From IMG/VR virus record IMGVR_UViG_3300045988_152699: 64,000 nt of DNA; one strand, 5' to 3'. A program made the position numbers and the translations under genes. Position 1 is the first letter of the stretch. Each line of letters starts with the position of its first letter. Origin of the DNA: a virus. Its lineage: Duplodnaviria; Heunggongvirae; Uroviricota; Caudoviricetes. Under the pieces are notes generated by a model, which saw nothing but the letters and a program-made list of their open reading frames with translations, did no database searches and was not told the origin of the DNA. This document shows, in pieces, positions 4,700 to 31,268 of the stretch.

Positions 4700-5061
4700 C
4701 ACTATCAGCTATTGAGTTAATGGATCTCAGCGATAAGTTGGATGCTCTGATGTCCAAAGCGGCTACCGCGAGTGGCATGGAGTTGCTGGATATCAGCGAT
4801 GAAATTGACCAGATCATGCAACAGATGGGGTACGGTGTGTCCGGCGGCAGTAGTGGCGAGGAAAAACAACCTTCGGTACATGATGGTGTGCCAAAACTGG
4901 TTGCTGATTTCCTGGCTGATAAATTCGTCGATCAGAGCACCGATGCATTTATCGGTACCTTGCAGGATTTGAGTCAATATGTTGGCACATACATCGACCT
5001 GGACCAGGTTAAACAGCACACGGCGGCATGGATAGCCGCCAACATTAAAGAGGCAGCATAA
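4696..5061 (+). CDS. ddrA: DdrA-like protein (darA operon)
   Basis: 121-aa ORF overlapping the darA stop (ATGA); assigned by synteny with P1. Confidence 0.5.
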   Translation: MTLSAIELMDLSDKLDALMSKAATASGMELLDISDEIDQIMQQMGYGVSGGSSGEEKQPSVHDGVPKLVADFLADKFVDQSTDAFIGTLQDLSQYVGTYIDLDQVKQHTAAWIAANIKEAA

Positions 5062-5073
5062 GGCGTAACAGGG

Positions 5074-8061
5074 ATGAGCTTAAGCGATCAGGTGGTAATG
5101 GCCACCAGCATAGAAACGCTGATCGAGCTGCTAAAGAACCTGCCCGATTACGGGCGGGTTTCGTATGTGGTGACAGCGAAGGGAGACGAGGTAAAAACAG
5201 CGTTTGATATCGTCGATGCCTCAGCTCTTTTGGTATCCAATACTCTGGATGGGAAAATTAATCCTGACTATCCCCAGGAACTTCAGCCGCGCGACCGGAC
5301 CCGCGCATCCAGCCTTCTTCAGGTTAACCAGATATCCAAAGATTTGCGGCCAGCTCAGCTTACTGATTCCGGTTTATCCAGCCATGGTGCGCCAATAATT
5401 GGTGAGGACAATGCCGTTGAGTCAGGTAATGGGCGGACCATGGGGATCATTAAAGCCTATCAGGACGGTAATGCGGATCGGTATCGGGAGTACCTGATTG
5501 AACATGCGACCGAATTCGGCATACGGCCTGAAAAGGTTGAATCAATGACGGCTCCGGTACTGGTGCGCCGCCGGTTAACGAAGGTTGACCGTGTTCAGTT
5601 TGCCAAGGACTCAAATATTTCTGATCTCCAGGAAATGGCAGCCAGTGAAAAGGCTTTTGTTGATGCCGACAGCATAACACCGGCGATGATGGCGTTGTTT
5701 AACCCGTCAGAAAGTGGAGATCTGCTTAGCCGCAGTAATGACGCGTTTATTCGCGGATTTATGACGCAAGTTGGTGCCACACAGGCGGCTGGCCTTGTAA
5801 CTGAAGATGGGCGACCAACACGGCAACTTGTAGACCGTATACAAAACGCGATCTTTGCCAAGGCATATAAGGATGCGCGCCTGGTAAGGATGGTTGCAGA
5901 AGAACCTGATCCGGATATGCGTAATGTTCTGACGGCGCTTAATGCGGCAGCCAATGATTTTGTCCAGATGCAGGCTTTATCAGGAGAAGCGCACAAGCAG
6001 GCTGTGACAACTATTGTTGATGGCATTGAGACAGCGGATAGCCTCGATAAAAAGGCGCTGGCGGCATTGAAAGATGCGGTAGACCTGGTAAGGCAATCGA
6101 AGGAGTCAGGCCAGCATATTACCGATGTTATTGCTCAGGGGGATATGTTCAGCGAAACGGCCCCGGAAGTGAAAGCACTCGCGTTGTTCATCGTCGCGAA
6201 TAACCGTAGCGCGAAGCGTATGGCCACCGCCTTTAAGTTGATGGCTCAACGTATCAATGATGAGTTACAGCACCAGGGCCAGGCGCTGGGGGATATGTTT
6301 GGCGGCGGCGATGTGTCGTTACAGGATATCCTTCGCCAGGTGTCTCAGGAACTGGAAAACGAAGGCATGCAAGGGATATCCGGCGGTCTTTTCGAGTCCG
6401 TTTCCGGCGGTAGTTACAACGGTGTTGCTCCGTATACCAGTTTGCTATTACATCGGGCATCCGGCATCAAAGACATTATTCATCTGATCAGGCTGCTTTC
6501 CCGCACAGATCCCCAGGATGAACAGCTTGTACAAGTGCTTGCGCATTTTGTTCGAATGCCTGTTGCCGACGTGAAAAAATGGTGCCGATTATTCGGTATC
6601 AGCAATTCGTTACTTCGCGGATTGTTAAATCACGCATCCTCCCTTGGGCGCGACGGCTTTGATGAGATAGCGCAGGCGATAAAAAACGGAGATATGCCAC
6701 CAGCTATTGACTGGTTTTCCATTCGCCCAACCAGGGTGAAAGCATTCCTTAGCGCGGCGCATTCGGCATCACCATTGGCAGAAATGGTTCAGAGGTTGTC
6801 GCTCATATTCACAGACCATACCGCGTTGGGTGATCTGACTCTGGACGAGATGAAAGAAGCCTCCATTCAGTGGGCCGATCAACAAAATGAGGTTAACTCA
6901 GACTTCTTGCCAGCATTCAGGAAGGCCGTTAGTAAAGCGGATGATGCCCGTGGAATTCTGAAGGCATTTAAGGCATTGCAAAGTCGTGTTAATAAACATG
7001 TCGGTGATATCGATGGGGTAACGGCGGAAGGCCGGGATATCCTTAAAGAGCACGGCATAACGCCAGAGTTTATTGATGAGATCAGGACTGATATGCAGCG
7101 TGAGGTCGTATCGTCCCTGCAAATCGTAGCCAGAGCGTTGGCAGATGCTAATCCGAAGAGTGCGGCCATTGTTAACCGGGTTATTGGTGATATTGAAGCA
7201 TCGGAGGGCATGGGGGCGCTGAAACTCTTCCTTTCGCGAGCGTTTAATCCTAACGGCAATATTCTCCCTGGCATTATTGGTGAGGCTAAAAAGTATGTCA
7301 GTGAAGAAGAACTTGAGCAGCTTGACCAACTACTTAAGCGATTCTCATATAACCCGCAGACACGCTGGCAAATGAATCAGCGAAGTATGGGTTCGGTCCA
7401 CGAGAAAGTGTTATCTGCCATGAACAGTGCGATCGCAAACTCATCCGTATCTGAAGAAAAAGCTCTTGAGTGGGCCGACTCTTTTATCACAGAAGAAGTG
7501 GAAGAAGCCCGCGCTGGACAGAATGGTGGGATAGACCTGCGCAAGGAACTTGCTGATATTTATCGCCTGACTGGCGGGAAAATATCGACCTTATCAAAGG
7601 TAGTTCACCACCAGGGAAGGGCATATGCAAATCTAAATGGTGTTGTTGCTGTCAATTTGAACGATGAAAATGCAAGTGCACTGTGGCACGAGCTGGGTCA
7701 TCATCTTGAGTACAGTAACCCTGGTTTGTTAGAGAAAGCCCGGTCATTCCTGAAGGCCAATGTTGAAGGGGATAAGCCATCTTTCGTCAATATCGGTGGG
7801 CGTGGCAAGCCTGAATGGTGCTTCAGATCTCGATTGAGTAATATTTATATGGCGAAGGTATACCCGCCAGCCTCAGTAAGTAACACCGGGAAAATTCGGC
7901 AGAAATCACCGACTATTTCCAAAACGTCAGCAACGGAAGTATTCTCTATGGCTCTTCAGTTGTATCATGACAAAGAGGCCGCTGCCGCATCACTGATGAA
8001 TGGTGACGGATTGCTGGAACTGTTATTAGGTGTGGCAAAGGAGCTAAATAATGCAGATTAA
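5074..8061 (+). CDS. ddrB: DdrB-like large protein (darA operon)
   Basis: 995-aa ORF following ddrA; size and position match P1 DdrB; function inferred from synteny. Confidence 0.55.
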   Translation: MSLSDQVVMATSIETLIELLKNLPDYGRVSYVVTAKGDEVKTAFDIVDASALLVSNTLDGKINPDYPQELQPRDRTRASSLLQVNQISKDLRPAQLTDSGLSSHGAPIIGEDNAVESGNGRTMGIIKAYQDGNADRYREYLIEHATEFGIRPEKVESMTAPVLVRRRLTKVDRVQFAKDSNISDLQEMAASEKAFVDADSITPAMMALFNPSESGDLLSRSNDAFIRGFMTQVGATQAAGLVTEDGRPTRQLVDRIQNAIFAKAYKDARLVRMVAEEPDPDMRNVLTALNAAANDFVQMQALSGEAHKQAVTTIVDGIETADSLDKKALAALKDAVDLVRQSKESGQHITDVIAQGDMFSETAPEVKALALFIVANNRSAKRMATAFKLMAQRINDELQHQGQALGDMFGGGDVSLQDILRQVSQELENEGMQGISGGLFESVSGGSYNGVAPYTSLLLHRASGIKDIIHLIRLLSRTDPQDEQLVQVLAHFVRMPVADVKKWCRLFGISNSLLRGLLNHASSLGRDGFDEIAQAIKNGDMPPAIDWFSIRPTRVKAFLSAAHSASPLAEMVQRLSLIFTDHTALGDLTLDEMKEASIQWADQQNEVNSDFLPAFRKAVSKADDARGILKAFKALQSRVNKHVGDIDGVTAEGRDILKEHGITPEFIDEIRTDMQREVVSSLQIVARALADANPKSAAIVNRVIGDIEASEGMGALKLFLSRAFNPNGNILPGIIGEAKKYVSEEELEQLDQLLKRFSYNPQTRWQMNQRSMGSVHEKVLSAMNSAIANSSVSEEKALEWADSFITEEVEEARAGQNGGIDLRKELADIYRLTGGKISTLSKVVHHQGRAYANLNGVVAVNLNDENASALWHELGHHLEYSNPGLLEKARSFLKANVEGDKPSFVNIGGRGKPEWCFRSRLSNIYMAKVYPPASVSNTGKIRQKSPTISKTSATEVFSMALQLYHDKEAAAASLMNGDGLLELLLGVAKELNNAD

Positions 8062-21572: not shown

Positions 21573-22013
21573 ATGGCCACACTATCTGATACAATAAAAC
21601 CGAATAAAACATATCTTGAGGCGGTACTCCGTACAGCGTTGTTAGGAAAGACAGAAGACGAATACGTTGATTTCTTCCTGTCAGGGCTACGCGGGCGATT
21701 ACTGAAAAATCCCCGCCTGTACCGCAGCTATGGTCCATACTGGCCGGAAATTAAAAAATTATTACTGGAGCGCGGTTATGGTAATTTCGGTCGTCTCGTT
21801 GACCGTGACGTTCGCAAAATTTACCGTTATGACCGCCCGGCGCTAACACTCATAGCCGCGACGCTCTACAGCCAGGAGCGTTTTGATAATGGTCAGATAT
21901 ACTCAGCCTGGCATTTACTGCCAGTGCCTGAAGAAGTTGACGACCAGGACTATGAGTTTGAGTCTTACGATTTGGAAGTTGAAGCCTTGGCACAGGCTGG
22001 AGAGAAAACTTGA
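21573..22013 (+). CDS. ulx: Ulx-like protein (downstream of darB)
   Basis: 146-aa ORF immediately after darB; assigned by synteny only. Confidence 0.45.
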   Translation: MATLSDTIKPNKTYLEAVLRTALLGKTEDEYVDFFLSGLRGRLLKNPRLYRSYGPYWPEIKKLLLERGYGNFGRLVDRDVRKIYRYDRPALTLIAATLYSQERFDNGQIYSAWHLLPVPEEVDDQDYEFESYDLEVEALAQAGEKT

Positions 22014-22258
22014 AAAAGCGATACTACACAGTAAAGCATGGGACGCTACGAGCATTACAAGAGTTTGCTGATAAGCATAACGTTGAGGTGCGCAGGGAAG
22101 GGGGAAGTAAAGCTCTGCGCATGTACCGTCCGGACGGGAAATGGCGTACGGTCGTCGATTTCAAAACTAACAGCGTTCCCCAGGGCGTCCGCGACCGGGC
22201 ATTCGAAGAATGGGAGCAGATCATCATAGATAACGCATTGCTCCTGAATGCTGATTAA
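22010..22258 (+). CDS. lxc: Lxc-like small protein (modulator of C1 repression in P1)
   Basis: 82-aa ORF overlapping the ulx stop; position as in P1; followed by a terminator. Confidence 0.45.
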   Translation: MKKRYYTVKHGTLRALQEFADKHNVEVRREGGSKALRMYRPDGKWRTVVDFKTNSVPQGVRDRAFEEWEQIIIDNALLLNAD

Positions 22259-22266
22259 ATCTTTGG

Positions 22267-22292
22267 CTATGCCTGGCTAAGCCAGGCATAGG
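22267..22292. terminator. Perfect palindrome CTATGCCTGGCT-TA-AGCCAGGCATAG between convergent genes
   Basis: 12-bp perfect inverted repeat between the lxc stop and the stop of the RelA/SpoT-domain gene. Confidence 0.5.
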
Positions 22293-22295
22293 AAT

Positions 22296-23417
22296 TTACA
22301 CAGTATCAATGTGTCTGCTAAGGAATCTCCCGAACTGATTTGTTGACCCAAAATAGTTAGGATAAGCCTTTTTAAGAGATTTAATGTTGTTAGTGGCAAG
22401 CAGCACCGCAATTAATACTTCAGGATCCGCATCATCCTTATTAAGTTCCTGGAGGGCTTGTTCCGATTCTTTTTTCCTAAAAGGTTTCACAGAAACAAGA
22501 AACTTTCCAGTATCCTTGCCATTTTTTGTTATGGCGTTTCTCATCCTCACCAAAAAGAATCCATTATGGTTTTTGGGCAGGCTTTTCTTTAGGTTTGCAT
22601 CTGATGTCAGCTTCATTGCAAATGTATATGTACTTAATTTTGAGCGAACAGATAAAGCCTCCTCCAATGTTTTAAGCTCTGTTTGATAATTTTTGATGGT
22701 TTCATCATCAAGAATACAGGCACCTTCATCATGAGCAACTAGGCATCCAGAAAGATAAAAAAATCTTCTCCACTCAGGGTGACCTTCATTAGAAGTTTTC
22801 AGCTTAATATTTTCAAGTGTATCTATTATCTCCAGACTTGTTGCCCAAGCATGTTGGAGTTCTGTTCTTAGTTGTACTTCGATTTTAGTTTTACTCCACG
22901 GATTGTTACCGTTTTCTTCATCAAAACAACTATATGCAAGGTGAATGCCACTATATCCGCTTGGCTTTGGAGTTAAATAGTCATATTCCTTTAAGATTTT
23001 ATGCTTGGAGCGACTTTTAACTAGTCGGTCTTTTAGTTTCTTTAGTTGTTCGATGTTTCTAACTATAGCTCTACATCCGCCAATATCCTGCATTCTAGTA
23101 AGGGCTATTGCATTATTTGTTGCGCCGCCGTCAAGACTTGGACGCTCCAGTTTATCAATTATTGTGCTAAGTCTTTTTAGGCGTCTTGCAACAATAATCT
23201 TATTCTCTTTATCAACTTTTTTTGCAGCCCTATCAAGATGATTTTTCATTAGCATCAATGGATATAAATGAAGCTCGCGGAAATTTTGAATCATTTTAAT
23301 TGCTTCTTCTCGCTCTGCGCCCTCACAACCATGTCTAATTTTTCTGGCTGCTTTTTCTATTTGAGATTTCGAATATTTAAGTTCGCATTTTTGGCTTTGA
23401 TATACTTCACTGCCCAT
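22296..23417 (-). CDS. Fused toxin-antitoxin with a RelA/SpoT (toxSAS) nucleotidyltransferase domain, CapRel-like antiphage protein
   Basis: RelA/SpoT synthetase motifs DIGGCRAIV, G-loop GYSGIHLAY and EVQLRTELQHAWAT; a ~170-aa C-terminal extension; single gene at the position of the P1 res/mod locus; likely start is the second or third ATG (the track start is TTG). Confidence 0.75.
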   Translation of the reverse strand: MGSEVYQSQKCELKYSKSQIEKAARKIRHGCEGAEREEAIKMIQNFRELHLYPLMLMKNHLDRAAKKVDKENKIIVARRLKRLSTIIDKLERPSLDGGATNNAIALTRMQDIGGCRAIVRNIEQLKKLKDRLVKSRSKHKILKEYDYLTPKPSGYSGIHLAYSCFDEENGNNPWSKTKIEVQLRTELQHAWATSLEIIDTLENIKLKTSNEGHPEWRRFFYLSGCLVAHDEGACILDDETIKNYQTELKTLEEALSVRSKLSTYTFAMKLTSDANLKKSLPKNHNGFFLVRMRNAITKNGKDTGKFLVSVKPFRKKESEQALQELNKDDADPEVLIAVLLATNNIKSLKKAYPNYFGSTNQFGRFLSRHIDTV

Positions 23418-23480
23418 TACTAACATCCAGTTCAAATGATTAATGTGTTGTTACATATAATAACAAATCAAGCTAGAAAT

Positions 23481-23507
23481 CAATGGGTATGAAAATGAAA
23501 CATACCC
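23481..23507 (-). terminator. Stem-loop ATGGGTATG-(9 nt loop)-CATACCCAT between the unknown ORF and the RelA/SpoT-domain gene
   Basis: 9-bp perfect stem; the downstream sequence is only moderately T-rich. Confidence 0.35.
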
Positions 23508-23529
23508 ATAATGTTACCTAACGTAACTA

Positions 23530-24171
23530 TTATAAATAGTTCTGTTTACCTGTTAATTCTCCTTGCGGCACTTGTTTTTGCGTTAGTGTTTGAGTTCCGC
23601 GAATTATGTTAATCAGGGGACTTAGTAATGATGGTTCCTGATGGGCCTCAACTTCTCCAGCCATTGCCCTGATGTAGTCGGCGCTGGCAACGTTGTTGTA
23701 TTCCGTCGCAAAGCAACATAGTAACGTCAGAACATGTTCTGTCGTTATTTCGCTCCAGTTGATGTTGAAAAATTCATCGCCTTTTTTATCGTGTTCGGAA
23801 TCGAAGATGCTTTGGTGAAGGATGTATTTGCCGGATTCCTTGCGCGGTAACTTGATCGCTTTCTGGCGTTCCAATTCCTTGTAAATCTGCATTGCTTCAA
23901 TCAGTACCGGTCTGCCGTTCATGAAGGGATCACGCAACCTTACACGCTGGCCAACTCGACCGGTAATAAAGCTGTTTTCCTCTTCCACCAGCACGATAAA
24001 ACCCTTTTCCTCTTTTTCTCGCAATTCGCGCAGCAGCTGGAGTTCCATATCGCGGCGGCGTTCAGGGTAGCTGGTCCGCTCAGCCATTATCAGCTCATTG
24101 TTGATCCATGCAGCAGTCATTGACGCCGGTTTGCCGACGCTCATTGAAACAACGCATATTTTCTTATCCAT
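23530..24171 (-). CDS. Hypothetical protein between ref and the RelA/SpoT-domain gene (possibly the P1 mat equivalent)
   Basis: 213 aa from the ATG at 24171 (AGGGG SD upstream; the track start at 24198 is GTG); no recognisable motif; occupies the position of P1 mat. Confidence 0.45.
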   Translation of the reverse strand: MDKKICVVSMSVGKPASMTAAWINNELIMAERTSYPERRRDMELQLLRELREKEEKGFIVLVEEENSFITGRVGQRVRLRDPFMNGRPVLIEAMQIYKELERQKAIKLPRKESGKYILHQSIFDSEHDKKGDEFFNINWSEITTEHVLTLLCCFATEYNNVASADYIRAMAGEVEAHQEPSLLSPLINIIRGTQTLTQKQVPQGELTGKQNYL

Positions 24172-24359
24172 AGCGCCCCTACAAAAAAGAAAAGCCACCA
24201 GCGGCGGCTTAGCAATACAACTGAAGGTAGCGCCCGGTACTCAGACTGTGCCGTCCATGGAATATTTGAAAAGGGATCCATCCGTACCGGGCGTGTGATG
24301 ATTCTGACTCAAGTCACTTGTCAGTTGTCAATCATTTAAGATTAAAAATAATATATTTA

Positions 24360-24920
24360 TTAGTGCATGATGTTTGCCATTTCATAGGCGTCAGCCAGCA
24401 ACTCCATCTCTGACTTGTTCAACAAGGTGAATTCTTTCTTGCCTCCTACCACGCCATCTGCATGAACAGGGACCAGCCAAGGGTATTTTTCTCTTACTTC
24501 AGCCGGTGCTGCATGCTGGTGGTGCCATCTGCAAAGGGGCAATTGCTTTTTGTGACAACCCGGCGCGGTACGACCGGAGATATGGTGCAGAGACACCTCT
24601 TCAGATATTACTCCATGCATGTAGCAGGCAATGCAGGGGAGAGTGCCAAGAGCATTGGCGATGGTCCGTTCCTCCGCCGTCGGTGTTCGCCCCTTCAAGC
24701 CACGAGATTTTATTTTTACCGCACTTTTCCGCGTTTTGCTGGCTGGTGGGCGCTCTTTCTGTTTAGCGATACGGCGGTCGATAGAATCCCGCATTTTCTG
24801 ATATTGCGATTCTCGCCAGGCGGGGTCAGCCAACTTTTCCCGTTGCCGAGCGATCGCTCGTTCTCTGGCTGCCTTCTGCCACTCGCGGCGCTGTTCAAGT
24901 TTTTGTTCGATTGTTTTCAT
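24360..24920 (-). CDS. ref: Ref, HNH-family endonuclease (recombination enhancement function)
   Basis: 186 aa with an HNH-like Cys/His cluster (CIACYMHG…HHISGRTAPGCHKK…CRWHH) and a basic N-terminus; position next to cre as in P1. Confidence 0.8.
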   Translation of the reverse strand: MKTIEQKLEQRREWQKAARERAIARQREKLADPAWRESQYQKMRDSIDRRIAKQKERPPASKTRKSAVKIKSRGLKGRTPTAEERTIANALGTLPCIACYMHGVISEEVSLHHISGRTAPGCHKKQLPLCRWHHQHAAPAEVREKYPWLVPVHADGVVGGKKEFTLLNKSEMELLADAYEMANIMH

Positions 24921-28590: not shown

Positions 28591-30075
28591 TTATTCATTA
28601 AGCCATGCCAGAGCTTCATCAACCTGCGCTTCGTCTTCGACGCTAAGCACTTCATCTTGGGGAACATAGTTCGCCAACATAGCGAAACAATATGTATCCC
28701 AATGGTCCGGTGAGTGCAGGTTGAGTTTTTTCTTCATATCTTCCTTTGACATCACCTTCCATTGACCTGCGGAATTTATCCCTACCGGTATCTTTGATGC
28801 TTCCTCTATAGTCGCAGCCCCCTTATCAAGCCTCATACGCCCTGATTTTACAGCTTCTGCCGCCTGAATATTCGCGAAAGCGCGCATATCGAAATAAAGG
28901 CTTTTATCTTCACGGCTGTGCATCTTTTTACCCCAGCGGATACGCTGGACGGTAATGCCATAGCGTTCGTACATTAGATCAGCCGTCGATTTCCCCAAGC
29001 CATCGCCATCAATAGCTATGGTTATGTTCGGGAACCGTTCTGGGTTACATTCTGCGAAAATCTTGGCGGCTAACTGCGTTTCTGTAACGTCTGTGTATTC
29101 CAGCATACGATAGTTGATTACACGGCGTTTATTTCGCTGGCCGGACACCATCATGATATTAATAACGGACTTATCTCGTCCTGTGCCACCAGCAACGTCA
29201 ACACATGCAACCCAGCCCCATCCTTTGGCAATCTTGACCTTTCGCCGCGTCGCCCGCTCAACCTCATCACGACCAAGAAGAAAGCCATCTTGAGATTTGG
29301 GAAATTCACCACGTACTTTGATCATGTACATGGGGTTATCACGACCGCCATACTCCGCAAGTTTTGCTCGTATAAATTTTGCATCTACAAGCGGAGATTC
29401 TTCACTATTCAGTATTATCGCAGTAAACAATCCATCAGGATTTCCCGGGCGAATAGCTAGTCTGTGGTGTGAATCGTAGAAATAGCCTGAAGGTCGCGTA
29501 GGCTGGGAAAGAAGCAGAATACGGTTATCCTTACCGGTCAGCGCACCTGTTATCACACTGAATGCTTTATCACTCACACCCGACGCTTCGTCGATGATAT
29601 ACAAGAGATGATCGGCGTGTTCACCAGCCAACGCCTCCTCATTTCCGGGGCGACAGGACTTTATCAATATTGTCCAAACACCCTTGCCAGTCACCTCAAA
29701 AAAAGACGTTTCTGTAAGAATGAAATACTTCGACAACCACGGGAATCTGCTAACAGCAGTAGCCCAATTGCTCTTTATGTATTTGAAAATACCATCAAGG
29801 ACTTGCTGTCTTTTGTTAGCGACCAGAATGACGCGAGCGCCGGGGAAAAACATGATGAAGAGTATTGCAATGATACTCGTCATATCCGATTTACCAGTAC
29901 CATGGCCGGAGGTCACACTTGTCCAACTGCCGTCCTGCTGCGTGGACTCAATGATCTCATCCTGCTGCCAGGTTGGTGTCTTCCCAAACAACACATCAGC
30001 GGCCGCAATCCAGTCATAACGATATAGCGCCACCAGCTCGCGCCAACGTGGGTCCGTTACGCAACTTCTGGCCAT
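28591..30075 (-). CDS. pacB: Terminase large subunit PacB
   Basis: Walker A SGHGTGKS, Walker [11 protein letters not shown], and a C-terminal nuclease-like half; downstream of pacA. Confidence 0.88.
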
Positions 30076-31268
30076 TAATCATCATCCCCGTACAGTTTGC
30101 GGGTAACTTCTTCGTCTTCCTCCTCGTCTTCGTCCAGATCCTGTTCAAGCCATGCTTCGTTTGATATGCCTTCCGCATCGACATCACCATAACCACCTGT
30201 ATCGACGATATCGGCAATTTCTTCTCTACGATGCTCAATCCACAATGCCGCATCAGCGCGGCGGCTGGCGGCCCGTTCTCGCGCGATTTTATCCAGATCT
30301 TCAAGTGATGGAGCGCCAGATGCTGTTTGGTTTTCCTCATCATCGGTATTGGTCTTAGGAGCACGCAGATCGGCTTTGATTTGCTCCAGCATCAGGGGCG
30401 GCACTTTTCCTCCATGCGCCTCGATGAATTCAGCCGCTTCCAGCACTGACCAGTTATTTTCACGCTTTCGTTCGTATGCCAGCTTAACAATGCCAGCTTG
30501 CCCCATAGATAAAGCGTGCTTTTCCGCCTCCCGGCTTTCTTTTCGATAGTTATTCCGGATGCTGTAAATGGTGTTGATCAGGCTGCTTATCTGCGCGGAA
30601 CAGCTGTTTAGCATGCTCGCGATACGGTATTCAGGCGGAGTACCTTCATCATCGTCTTTTTGCTGATCGCGCATTTCCTGCACTAGGCGAATACACGTAT
30701 CCCTGGCGTTCTCCAGCATAAGGAGATGAGAAAGAGACTTTTCCAGAAGAGTGGTTTCCAGAACATCGGCCCCGGACCGACGCAACATAGCGCGCGCGGC
30801 CTTCCGCGCTTCAACGTTATCTATCAGGTAATCGCCAGCTTCGAATTCAAAGCGTTCACCATCATCATCCAGGGTGTCGCGTTCCAGGCGATCACGTAAG
30901 GTCCGGTGGGCGCGGGTGATCACGTCATGATCATCTGAACGATCATTTATGCGCTTATTTTGGCGCTTCGCATTCTCGACTGCGGCACTGACAACGGCAT
31001 TAACTCTTTGTTTTTCCGCTATTTCAGCCGAAATATGATCACCTGCATGTTGATCATTAGAGTGATCAATGATCATGCTTTTTAGTGGCTTCCTGACTGG
31101 CTTATTTGGCTTGCGGCTGTCCGTAGTCCTGGTGTCTTCTTTAAAGGCACGGAGATAACGACGTGCGGTATTAGGGTTAAGATTAAACTCGGCGGCATAC
31201 TGTGCGATGGTGTAACCACCATCTCGCGCCAGGCGAGCAAAATTCTTCTTGTGATCGTCCCAGGTCAC
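30075..31268 (-). CDS. pacA: Terminase small/pac-recognition subunit PacA
   Basis: 397-aa ORF containing the clustered TGATCA/G hexamers of the pac site; N-terminal HTH-like region. Confidence 0.8.
30917..31076. other. pac packaging site: two clusters of TGATC(A/G) hexamers (3 and 4 copies) flanking about 95 bp
   Basis: GATC at about 30918, 30929, 30941 and 31037, 31052, 31064, 31071, inside pacA, matching the described P1 pac architecture. Confidence 0.65.

Follow-up and report, generated by a model that had tools for sequence, protein, structure and literature searches.

The 64,000-nt stretch of caudoviral DNA analyzed here (IMG/VR record IMGVR_UViG_3300045988_152699; hereafter the window) carries an ORF between the ref gene and a toxSAS defense gene, and its position raises the question of whether it serves the defense gene or the phage-plasmid that carries both. 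The initial annotation listed it as an unknown ORF and offered three readings: an equivalent of P1 mat, a second component or regulator of the defense cassette, or an anti-defense gene. The first of these is the one that the evidence favors. The ORF is very probably a P1-type mat, a conserved backbone gene of phage-plasmids that stands outside the CapRel defense cassette. A false lead is removed in this way, with the ORF as a backbone morphogenesis gene and CapRel as separate cargo. What remains are modest leads, mainly at the level of the specialist, which are described below and concern the start codon of mat, the terminator in its leader, the boundary of the hotspot and the TerL-like fold.

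Identity of the ORF as mat

In the ORF list of the window, the ORF extends over 23530-24198 on the minus strand and encodes 222 aa from a GTG start. It lies, as had been described, between ref and the defense gene, and all three are on the minus strand, with ref upstream (24360-24920; Pfam RecA_dep_nuc, E 7.6e-50) and the toxSAS gene downstream. The downstream ORF (22296-23435) contains a RelA/SpoT domain (PF04607, E 3e-13; PADLOC PDC-S33, E 5e-87), and its segment 22296-23417 is CapRelSJ46, a fused toxSAS toxin-antitoxin whose DNA is identical to that of SJ46 and SJ46-like records. The wider surroundings are P1-like, with darB, ulx and lxc on one side and c8, cre, cra, coi, c1, pacB and pacA on the other, and the window is 100% identical over 3.46 kb to several E. 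coli P1-like plasmids.

By sequence comparison, the ORF is a previously known gene. Residues 38-250 of P1 Mat (P1_gp006, YP_006475, with the note 'maturation control') align in BLASTP without gaps to the window product, with 201 of 213 residues identical (94%, E 5e-155), and the annotated Mat of Salmonella phage SJ46 (YP_009293516) is 100% identical to it. From the matches to P1 Mat, SJ46 and PHROG 1837, the mat coding sequence is placed at 23530-24171 (minus strand; 213 aa plus the stop codon). When 23436-24359 was compared with phage records by megablast, SJ46 matched at 100% and RCS47, P7 and P1 at 95-97%, and the annotation under all four matches is mat, "maturation control protein". The DNA is 95% identical to P1/P7 from 23575 on through the ref-mat intergenic region. 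The option of a P1 mat equivalent thus proves to be the right one. The remark that the product has no recognizable motif needs to be divided: Pfam, NCBIfam and PADLOC gave no match to Mat, and no family among the PADLOC-DB defense-system HMMs reached E<=0.1, but the profile search found PHROG 1837 to match from end to end (E 4e-113; residues 1-213 on profile positions 1-212 of 212).

Mat is no chance ORF, as it is kept in 694 PLSDB plasmid records; 22 phage records also carry it. A profile search of 1.84 billion cluster representatives gave 142 relatives at E<=1e-3, nearly all of which are stand-alone proteins of 200-230 aa, and the identity of aligned full-length family members falls to about 15-20%. 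In a collection of 5.8 billion proteins, homologs bear the name "maturation control protein", and the majority are exactly 213 aa long and encoded on contigs of ~95 kb. The window gene resembles P1 mat over its whole 213 aa, is likewise located downstream of ref, and has in common with it a C1 operator and early and late promoter elements. It differs from P1 as follows. The final ~20 residues read QTLTQKQVPQGELTGKQNYL in the window vs QRLAEKSVPHGILTGKGNYF in P1, the gene downstream of mat is CapRel in the window and EcoP1I res in P1, and a G-run is 1 bp shorter in the window, so that the 37-residue N-terminal extension annotated in P1 is lost.

Start Codon

This last difference bears on where translation of mat begins. 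The initial annotation had preferred a downstream ATG to the listed GTG, and the preference is borne out. The ATG is at 24171, nine codons inside the GTG ORF, with AGGGG 5-9 nt upstream. The PHROG 1837 profile begins at MDKK, which corresponds to residue 38 of P1 Mat, and homologs start at MDKK as well; the longer ones possess unrelated N-terminal extensions, and the P1-type extension is not conserved in the homologs P0028 and P0037. The shortened G-run lies just upstream of the ATG, where the window has one G fewer than P1. Among near-identical elements, the run is G4 in the window, SJ46, L004, L006 and L007, and G5 in P1 and L005. G5 puts a far-upstream ATG (MDPFSN...) in frame and G4 the GTG, and the ATG at 24171 alone fits the frame with either run length. 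In L011 a further frame runs through the conserved upstream DNA. By the profile start, the lengths of the homologs and the G4/G5 frames, the true start of mat is the ATG at 24171, with a product of 213 aa.

The nine-codon GTG extension (24172-24198, minus strand), which holds the 3′ arm of the leader hairpin, the T-run and the Shine-Dalgarno sequence AGGGG, is probably not translated. An upstream ORF of 46 aa (MDPFSNIPWT...; 24141-24281, minus strand) is the counterpart of the 37-residue N-terminal extension of P1 Mat and is out of frame here; it is probably a non-coding leader. The 250-aa reference annotation of P1 Mat is likewise probably too long, with its start placed 37 codons too far upstream. 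Both the GTG extension and the P1 extension would then be translations of the conserved terminator-like hairpin in the leader.

Control Region and Leader of mat

The control elements of mat, all on the minus strand, are those of P1. The C1 repressor operator Omat (CATGCACTAATAAATATA; 24352-24369) overlaps the ref stop codon and is identical to the P1 'monovalent C1-controlled operator Omat'. The Pmat/LPmat elements at 24301-24331 match the positions of the annotated P1 features Pmat and LPmat, and consist of the -35 box TTGACA (24331-24326) and the -10 box CAGAAT (24306-24301), which make up a sigma-70 promoter, and the -22 late box AAGTGACTT (24319-24311). There is one substitution vs P1 between the promoter boxes. 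The ref-mat intergenic region as a whole is about 97-99% identical to P1, with operator and -35, -22 and -10 boxes all kept.

Between the promoter and mat lies a structured leader of ~125 nt. Its first hairpin, of 10 bp (GCCCGGTAC...GTACCGGGC; 24231-24293, minus strand), is conserved at the nucleotide level, and the reading frame through it differs between elements. A comparison of six sequences showed a single pair with full compensation (A-U to G-C), besides several G-U changes, which gives weak covariation support to this hairpin. At the end of the leader, a terminator scan and an RNA fold both point to an intrinsic-terminator-like hairpin, AAGCCGCC-GCT-GGTGGCTT followed by TTCTTTTTT (24182-24210, minus strand), about 10 nt before the Shine-Dalgarno sequence of mat. 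A hairpin with a T-run, different in sequence, occupies the same place in D6 (34% Mat identity), L008 (41%), L011 (58%) and L012 (33%), and also in L017, L018 and JK004. In D6, the gene upstream of mat is on the opposite strand, so the hairpin there does not serve to terminate a co-directional gene before it. A scan of 23300-24500 against Rfam gave no family. It is possible from these sequences that the leader is an attenuator, or gives rise to a short leader RNA, that doses mat. A terminator-like hairpin conserved between promoter and start codon across diverged relatives is a lead for P1 specialists.

These elements also bear on an old idea of what Mat does. The historical name 'maturation control' suggests a regulator of late morphogenetic gene expression, with no direct part in assembly or DNA handling, and such a reading may appeal to the expression of mat under C1 and a late promoter and to the conserved attenuator-like leader, which suggests tightly dosed expression. 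However, neither a DNA-binding HTH nor a sigma/anti-sigma-like domain is predicted in Mat, the whole folded part of which is RNase H-like (see below), and a regulatory role is regarded as improbable.

Mat, CapRel, and the Variable Slot

A part for the ORF in the CapRel cassette, as second component, regulator or antitoxin, would be suggested by the arrangement of the genes: CapRel is adjacent on the same strand, with mat 94 bp upstream of the CapRel ORF, and a promoter-like site for CapRel is located within the 3′ end of mat. The co-occurrence check proposed in the initial annotation, carried out on PLSDB, speaks against it. Co-occurrence of mat with toxSAS does not hold, with 694 records for mat vs 22 for this CapRel gene, and P1, P7, D6 and P1-like plasmids by the hundreds have mat but no toxSAS gene. 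Full-length homology to P1 Mat is therefore combined with conservation in relatives that lack toxSAS, the outcome that the initial annotation had itself named as a refutation, and the readings of the ORF as defense partner or anti-defense gene are rejected. In sister elements, the slot between lxc and mat is filled with EcoP1I res/mod (P1), SIR2-family genes, another type III R-M system, or DUF2971. Beside mat, a defense gene is lacking altogether in relatives from Salmonella, Citrobacter and Cronobacter, in phage D6, and among metagenomic relatives with as little as 19% identity; instead, homologs of P1 genes 26, 25, and 7 directly follow it in these relatives, D6 and JK004 included. The same mat thus stands beside R-M, SIR2 or DUF2971 cargo, or beside baseplate genes.

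CapRelSJ46 for its part needs no partner. In this fused toxin-antitoxin, the protein's own C-terminal domain serves as antitoxin and sensor alike (Zhang et al., PMC9712102), and E. coli was protected by the ORF when no more than 100-200 bp of DNA upstream of it was cloned along, in a vector without a promoter (PMC9712102). Of mat, the published construct can include no more than ~100 nt from the 3′ end, and CapRel defends without the mat gene. CapRelSJ46 is a single-gene system, and physical adjacency is the sole point that it has in common with Mat. With no PADLOC match for Mat in addition, membership of the ORF in the cassette is so improbable that it may be set aside. CapRel here is a stand-alone cargo gene in a variable slot bordering mat.

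The slot itself shows how cargo may come and go. Among E. coli mat alleles, residues 1-165 are 98-99% identical and the last 48 only 40-81%. DNA matches to other P1-like elements end at varied points within the last ~45-230 nt of mat, and in the few loci inspected the tail allele pairs with the type of cargo. The simplest reading of these sequences is that cargo would be exchanged by recombination with the 3′ end of mat as one flank. As judged from the alleles, the recombination boundary falls within the last ~140 nt of the gene, and the C-terminal 48 residues would diverge because of it. In P1-like phage-plasmids, mat forms one edge of a single-gene defense hotspot, with the exchange boundary inside its 3′ end.

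The same observation weakens the last of the initial readings, in which the ORF is an anti-defense gene and guards the phage-plasmid against the immunity of hosts or competitors. In favor of it, the gene is close to a defense slot and to darB and ulx, which are Dar anti-restriction genes, and the C-terminal tail of Mat is variable. However, the tail variation follows the adjoining cargo, and breakpoints of recombination in the 3′ end of mat account for it, whereas the core is 98-99% conserved. Furthermore, mat is reported to be essential for particle maturation, resides in a baseplate operon in relatives, and is kept in all the toxSAS-free elements named above. An anti-defense role is very unlikely.

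A sigma-70 promoter-like site, TTAACA-16-TATAAT (11/12 match), is made up of the final nine codons of mat together with its stop (23529-23556, minus strand). It is a candidate for the native CapRel promoter, and falls in the 100-200 bp upstream region that is sufficient for native CapRel expression (PMC9712102). Such a site was also considered as a general trait of co-oriented cargo, and this was rejected, as it is absent from the SIR2 allele: in SIR2-carrying alleles its -10 hexamer is degraded.

Predicted Fold of Mat

Structure prediction, also suggested by the initial annotation, gave an AF2 model from an alignment of 90 family members with a pLDDT of 91.3 and a pTM of 0.78. The predicted topology is b1-b2-b3-a1-b4-a2-b5, followed by a beta-hairpin and helices. 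Residues 1 to ~160 of the model form an RNase H-like, TerL-nuclease-like domain, and residues ~165-213 a variable helical tail that has a conserved L-T-G-K..L at its end. In a Foldseek search, essentially all of the top ~20 PDB matches were TerL nuclease domains (G20c, P74-26, D6E, E217, P22, SPP1, and T4), with probability 1.0, E-values of 1e-4 to 5e-3 and TM-scores of 0.40-0.51 over ~170 aligned columns; TM-scores in this range (0.4-0.5) and E-values of 1e-4 to 1e-2 are moderate evidence for likeness to TerL. A weaker first model gave the same TerL result against both PDB and BFVD. With the TerL nuclease domains of G20c (5m1f/5m1k), P74-26 (5tge), D6E (5oe8), P22 (4dkw), SPP1 (2wbn) and T4 gp17 (3cpe), the Mat model has in common the topology, the auxiliary beta-hairpin, and the helix that follows it. 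A conserved acidic pair at the end of beta-4 is a further likeness. On the other hand, Mat stands alone without an ATPase domain, and sequence-profile similarity to TerL is not detectable.

Several sequence searches illustrate this last point. Pfam run on the 90 family members gave only scattered chance matches, with terminase families absent, and hhalign of the Mat family against PacB gave a probability of 0.1. PDB sequences searched with the profile gave nothing but chromodomain-like matches below threshold, to the beta-hairpin at residues 114-143 (E 0.25), and this likeness was taken as chance. The idea that Mat is the nuclease domain missing from a split P1 terminase was also dropped: PacB of the window is matched by a TerL profile (PHROG 2) over residues 32-473 of 494 and by its sequence appears to be a complete large terminase. 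The only match of PacB to PDB in phmmer was a non-significant colinear one to Sf6 gp2. Mat is thus predicted to be a stand-alone RNase H-like domain, closest to the nuclease domain of large terminases, with a helical tail added.

Active-Site Residues

In TerL nucleases, the catalytic acidic triad is formed by an Asp in beta-1, an Asp or Glu after beta-4, and an Asp at the start of the C-terminal helix, and the spacing of these residues is about 53-57 and 82-84 residues in published structures. The catalytic positions were mapped onto Mat by the order of secondary structures and the residue spacing, without superposition, and we take them to correspond to Mat residues 9, 63/64, and 145. Of the three sites, only the middle one is well kept among the 90 aligned members, [DE]63-[ED]64 being D/E in about 95%. 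Position 9 is Ser in 46, Thr in 19, Cys in 13 and Ala in 4, so that the first catalytic Asp is replaced with Ser/Thr/Cys in 78 of 90, and the beta-1 of the family offers no alternative conserved acid. Position 145, the third acidic site, is poorly conserved, with Glu in 36 (40%), Gly in 19, and Asp in 6. With S/T/C at the first site of most members and Glu at the third in no more than 40%, the family lacks a complete canonical two-metal site. Other acidic or amide columns are conserved at D/N/E124, D/N128 and D/N138, and strong conservation is also seen at G131, Y135, D/N138-W139, L150-L151, and the C-terminal L-x-G.

These columns are the basis on which Mat may still be imagined as an active nuclease with a non-canonical site, which trims or resolves DNA, such as branches or packaged ends, in the course of maturation. 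T4 gp4 and endonuclease VII are known to trim or resolve DNA during maturation of that phage. The predicted fold is nuclease-like, and the pair at 63-64 and positions 124, 128 and 138 are strongly conserved. However, the beta-1 Asp, which to our knowledge is universal in RNase H-like nucleases, is the very residue that is lost, with no other conserved acid in beta-1 to take its place, and the third site is variable as described. Although the DNase activity of T4 gp4 is a precedent (PMC7824862, citing Benler 2020), catalysis by Mat is rather unlikely.

Possible Function of Mat

The classical phenotype of mat is described as 'particle maturation'. The gene has been listed as essential from amber mutants (Lehnherr 2001, via secondary citation), and CRISPRi lowered the EOP to 0.28. 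Mat is not mentioned in the P1 virion proteome paper, which is compatible with a non-structural role without being evidence for it, and a mechanism for Mat was not found in the literature searched.

Gene order in the relatives bears on a role in the tail. Nine diverged lineages, with Mat identities of 19-75%, have mat followed immediately by homologs of P1 genes 26 (baseplate wedge, PHROG 1269), 25 (PHROG 1722) and 7 (PHROG 1906) in this order, and stop and start codons often overlap. This synteny points to a role in the tail at least as much as to one in the head. Mat may accordingly be imagined as a tail or baseplate assembly factor, either a chaperone or a catalytic one, which works with gp26, gp25, and gp7. 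This is the main rival to the proposal given below, and we rate it as unlikely on balance while giving it real weight. Against it, Mat is predicted to fold as a DNA-processing domain, and head and tail genes are often mixed in phage late operons. Moreover, mat is about 24 kb apart from gene 26 in P1, at no obvious cost. In the window, the homologs of genes 26, 25, and 7 are found at 47671-50007.

Based on the predicted fold, we tentatively prefer the possibility that Mat resembles the terminase nuclease but is for the most part non-catalytic. It would act on the end of the packaged DNA, on the portal, or on the terminase, and by this action filled heads would become competent for tail joining. 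Such a role fits the 'particle maturation' phenotype and the dual early and late expression of mat, and offers a concrete idea for this old phenotype. By analogy, it would be functionally comparable to that of the head-completion factors of T4. A fuller version of the proposal is more speculative still. In it, Mat is a degenerate copy of the terminase nuclease that would dock via its C-terminal L-T-G tail on the portal, terminase or DNA end, finish packaging, and license head-tail joining, and its dose would be set by a promoter-leader-terminator element, either attenuating or producing a small RNA, which the P1 reference annotates as protein.

The comparison with T4 gp4 is instructive in both directions. 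Like Mat as proposed here, gp4 is an accessory nuclease-fold protein other than the terminase, and it is needed after packaging for head-tail joining. The folds are unrelated, that of gp4 being restriction-endonuclease/TnsA-like and that of Mat RNase H-like. The gp4 head-completion protein needs its own DNase activity (PMC7824862, citing Benler 2020); catalysis is thus demonstrated for gp4 but doubtful for Mat, and the comparison is an analogy only. There is also a likeness in location, as T4 gene 4 adjoins gene 53 for the baseplate wedge, whose product gp53 aligns with P1 gp26 (PMC9024508). A T4 operon of genes 4 and 53 was considered as a parallel to mat and gene 26 and was rejected: the two T4 genes are adjacent but divergent, and so are not co-transcribed.

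The slot between lxc and mat

In E. coli P1-like phage-plasmids, the interval between lxc and mat is a one-gene variable slot. It corresponds to positions 22259..23529 of the window, between lxc (22010..22258) and mat, and was compared with those of P1 (L001) and the sister elements L004-L007. The cargo is the fused toxin-antitoxin gene CapRelSJ46 in the window and EcoP1I res/mod in P1, and elsewhere the slot is occupied by a DUF2971 gene, SIR2-family genes, or another type III restriction-modification system together with IS1. Cargo exchange has its boundary within the final ~140 nt of mat; in the few loci compared, the C-terminal allele of Mat goes with the cargo. At the mat-CapRel junction, a near-consensus sigma-70 promoter-like site (TTAACA-16-TATAAT; 23529..23556, minus strand) is formed by the last codons and the stop codon of mat, and it may serve as the promoter of CapRel. 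The mat-CapRel spacer after it contains a perfect inverted repeat of 9 bp, ATGGGTATG/CATACCCAT (23483..23509), which may be an operator or a weak terminator of mat.

SJ46 differs from the window in that Tn1721-blaCTX-M-27 is inserted at its ref/mat junction, and homology between the two stops at ~24388, within the 3′ end of ref. On this evidence, the window is an uninterrupted P1-like element carrying CapRel, distinct from SJ46 itself.

Leader, start codon and possible ancestral context of mat

A structured leader, conserved at the nucleotide level, is located between the promoter and the ATG of mat (24182..24293, minus strand), and its 3′ end forms an intrinsic-terminator-like hairpin with a T-run. 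Counterparts are found in L003 (~5948-5975), L008 (5956-5983), L011 (5959-5992) and L012 (~4955-4990), and the hairpin is present with differing stem sequences in relatives down to ~33% Mat identity. The leader, for which Rfam had no matching family, may act as an attenuator or give rise to a short leader RNA.

At its N terminus, the reference Mat of P1 (250 aa) includes an extension of 37 residues, which is a translation of these leader hairpins (24141..24281, minus strand; 6598-6708 in P1). This reference start is probably wrong, because a polymorphic G4/G5 run upstream of the mat ATG (24177..24180) changes the frame of the extension between near-identical elements.

The P1 baseplate/tail genes 26, 25 and 7 are ~24 kb from mat in the window (47671..50007, plus strand). 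They directly follow mat, often with ref just upstream, in every P1 relative examined from outside E. coli; this suggests that ref-mat-26-25-7 is the ancestral order, broken in the P1 lineage.

Sequence matches of Mat, and of PacB and PacA

Residues 114-143 of Mat, a β-hairpin (~23743..23832), gave a weak chromodomain-like match (E 0.25 to CDY1; F-E-I-x-x-I-V-D-x-x-x-D-x-x-G-x-x-x-Y-x-I-x-W), probably by chance. The packaging genes pacB (28591..30075) and pacA (30075..31268) are both on the minus strand. PacB had no significant terminase match in Pfam; a match to PHROG 2 (terminase large subunit) spans its residues 32-473, and it has weak colinear similarity to Sf6 gp2. PacA carries an N-terminal HTH.
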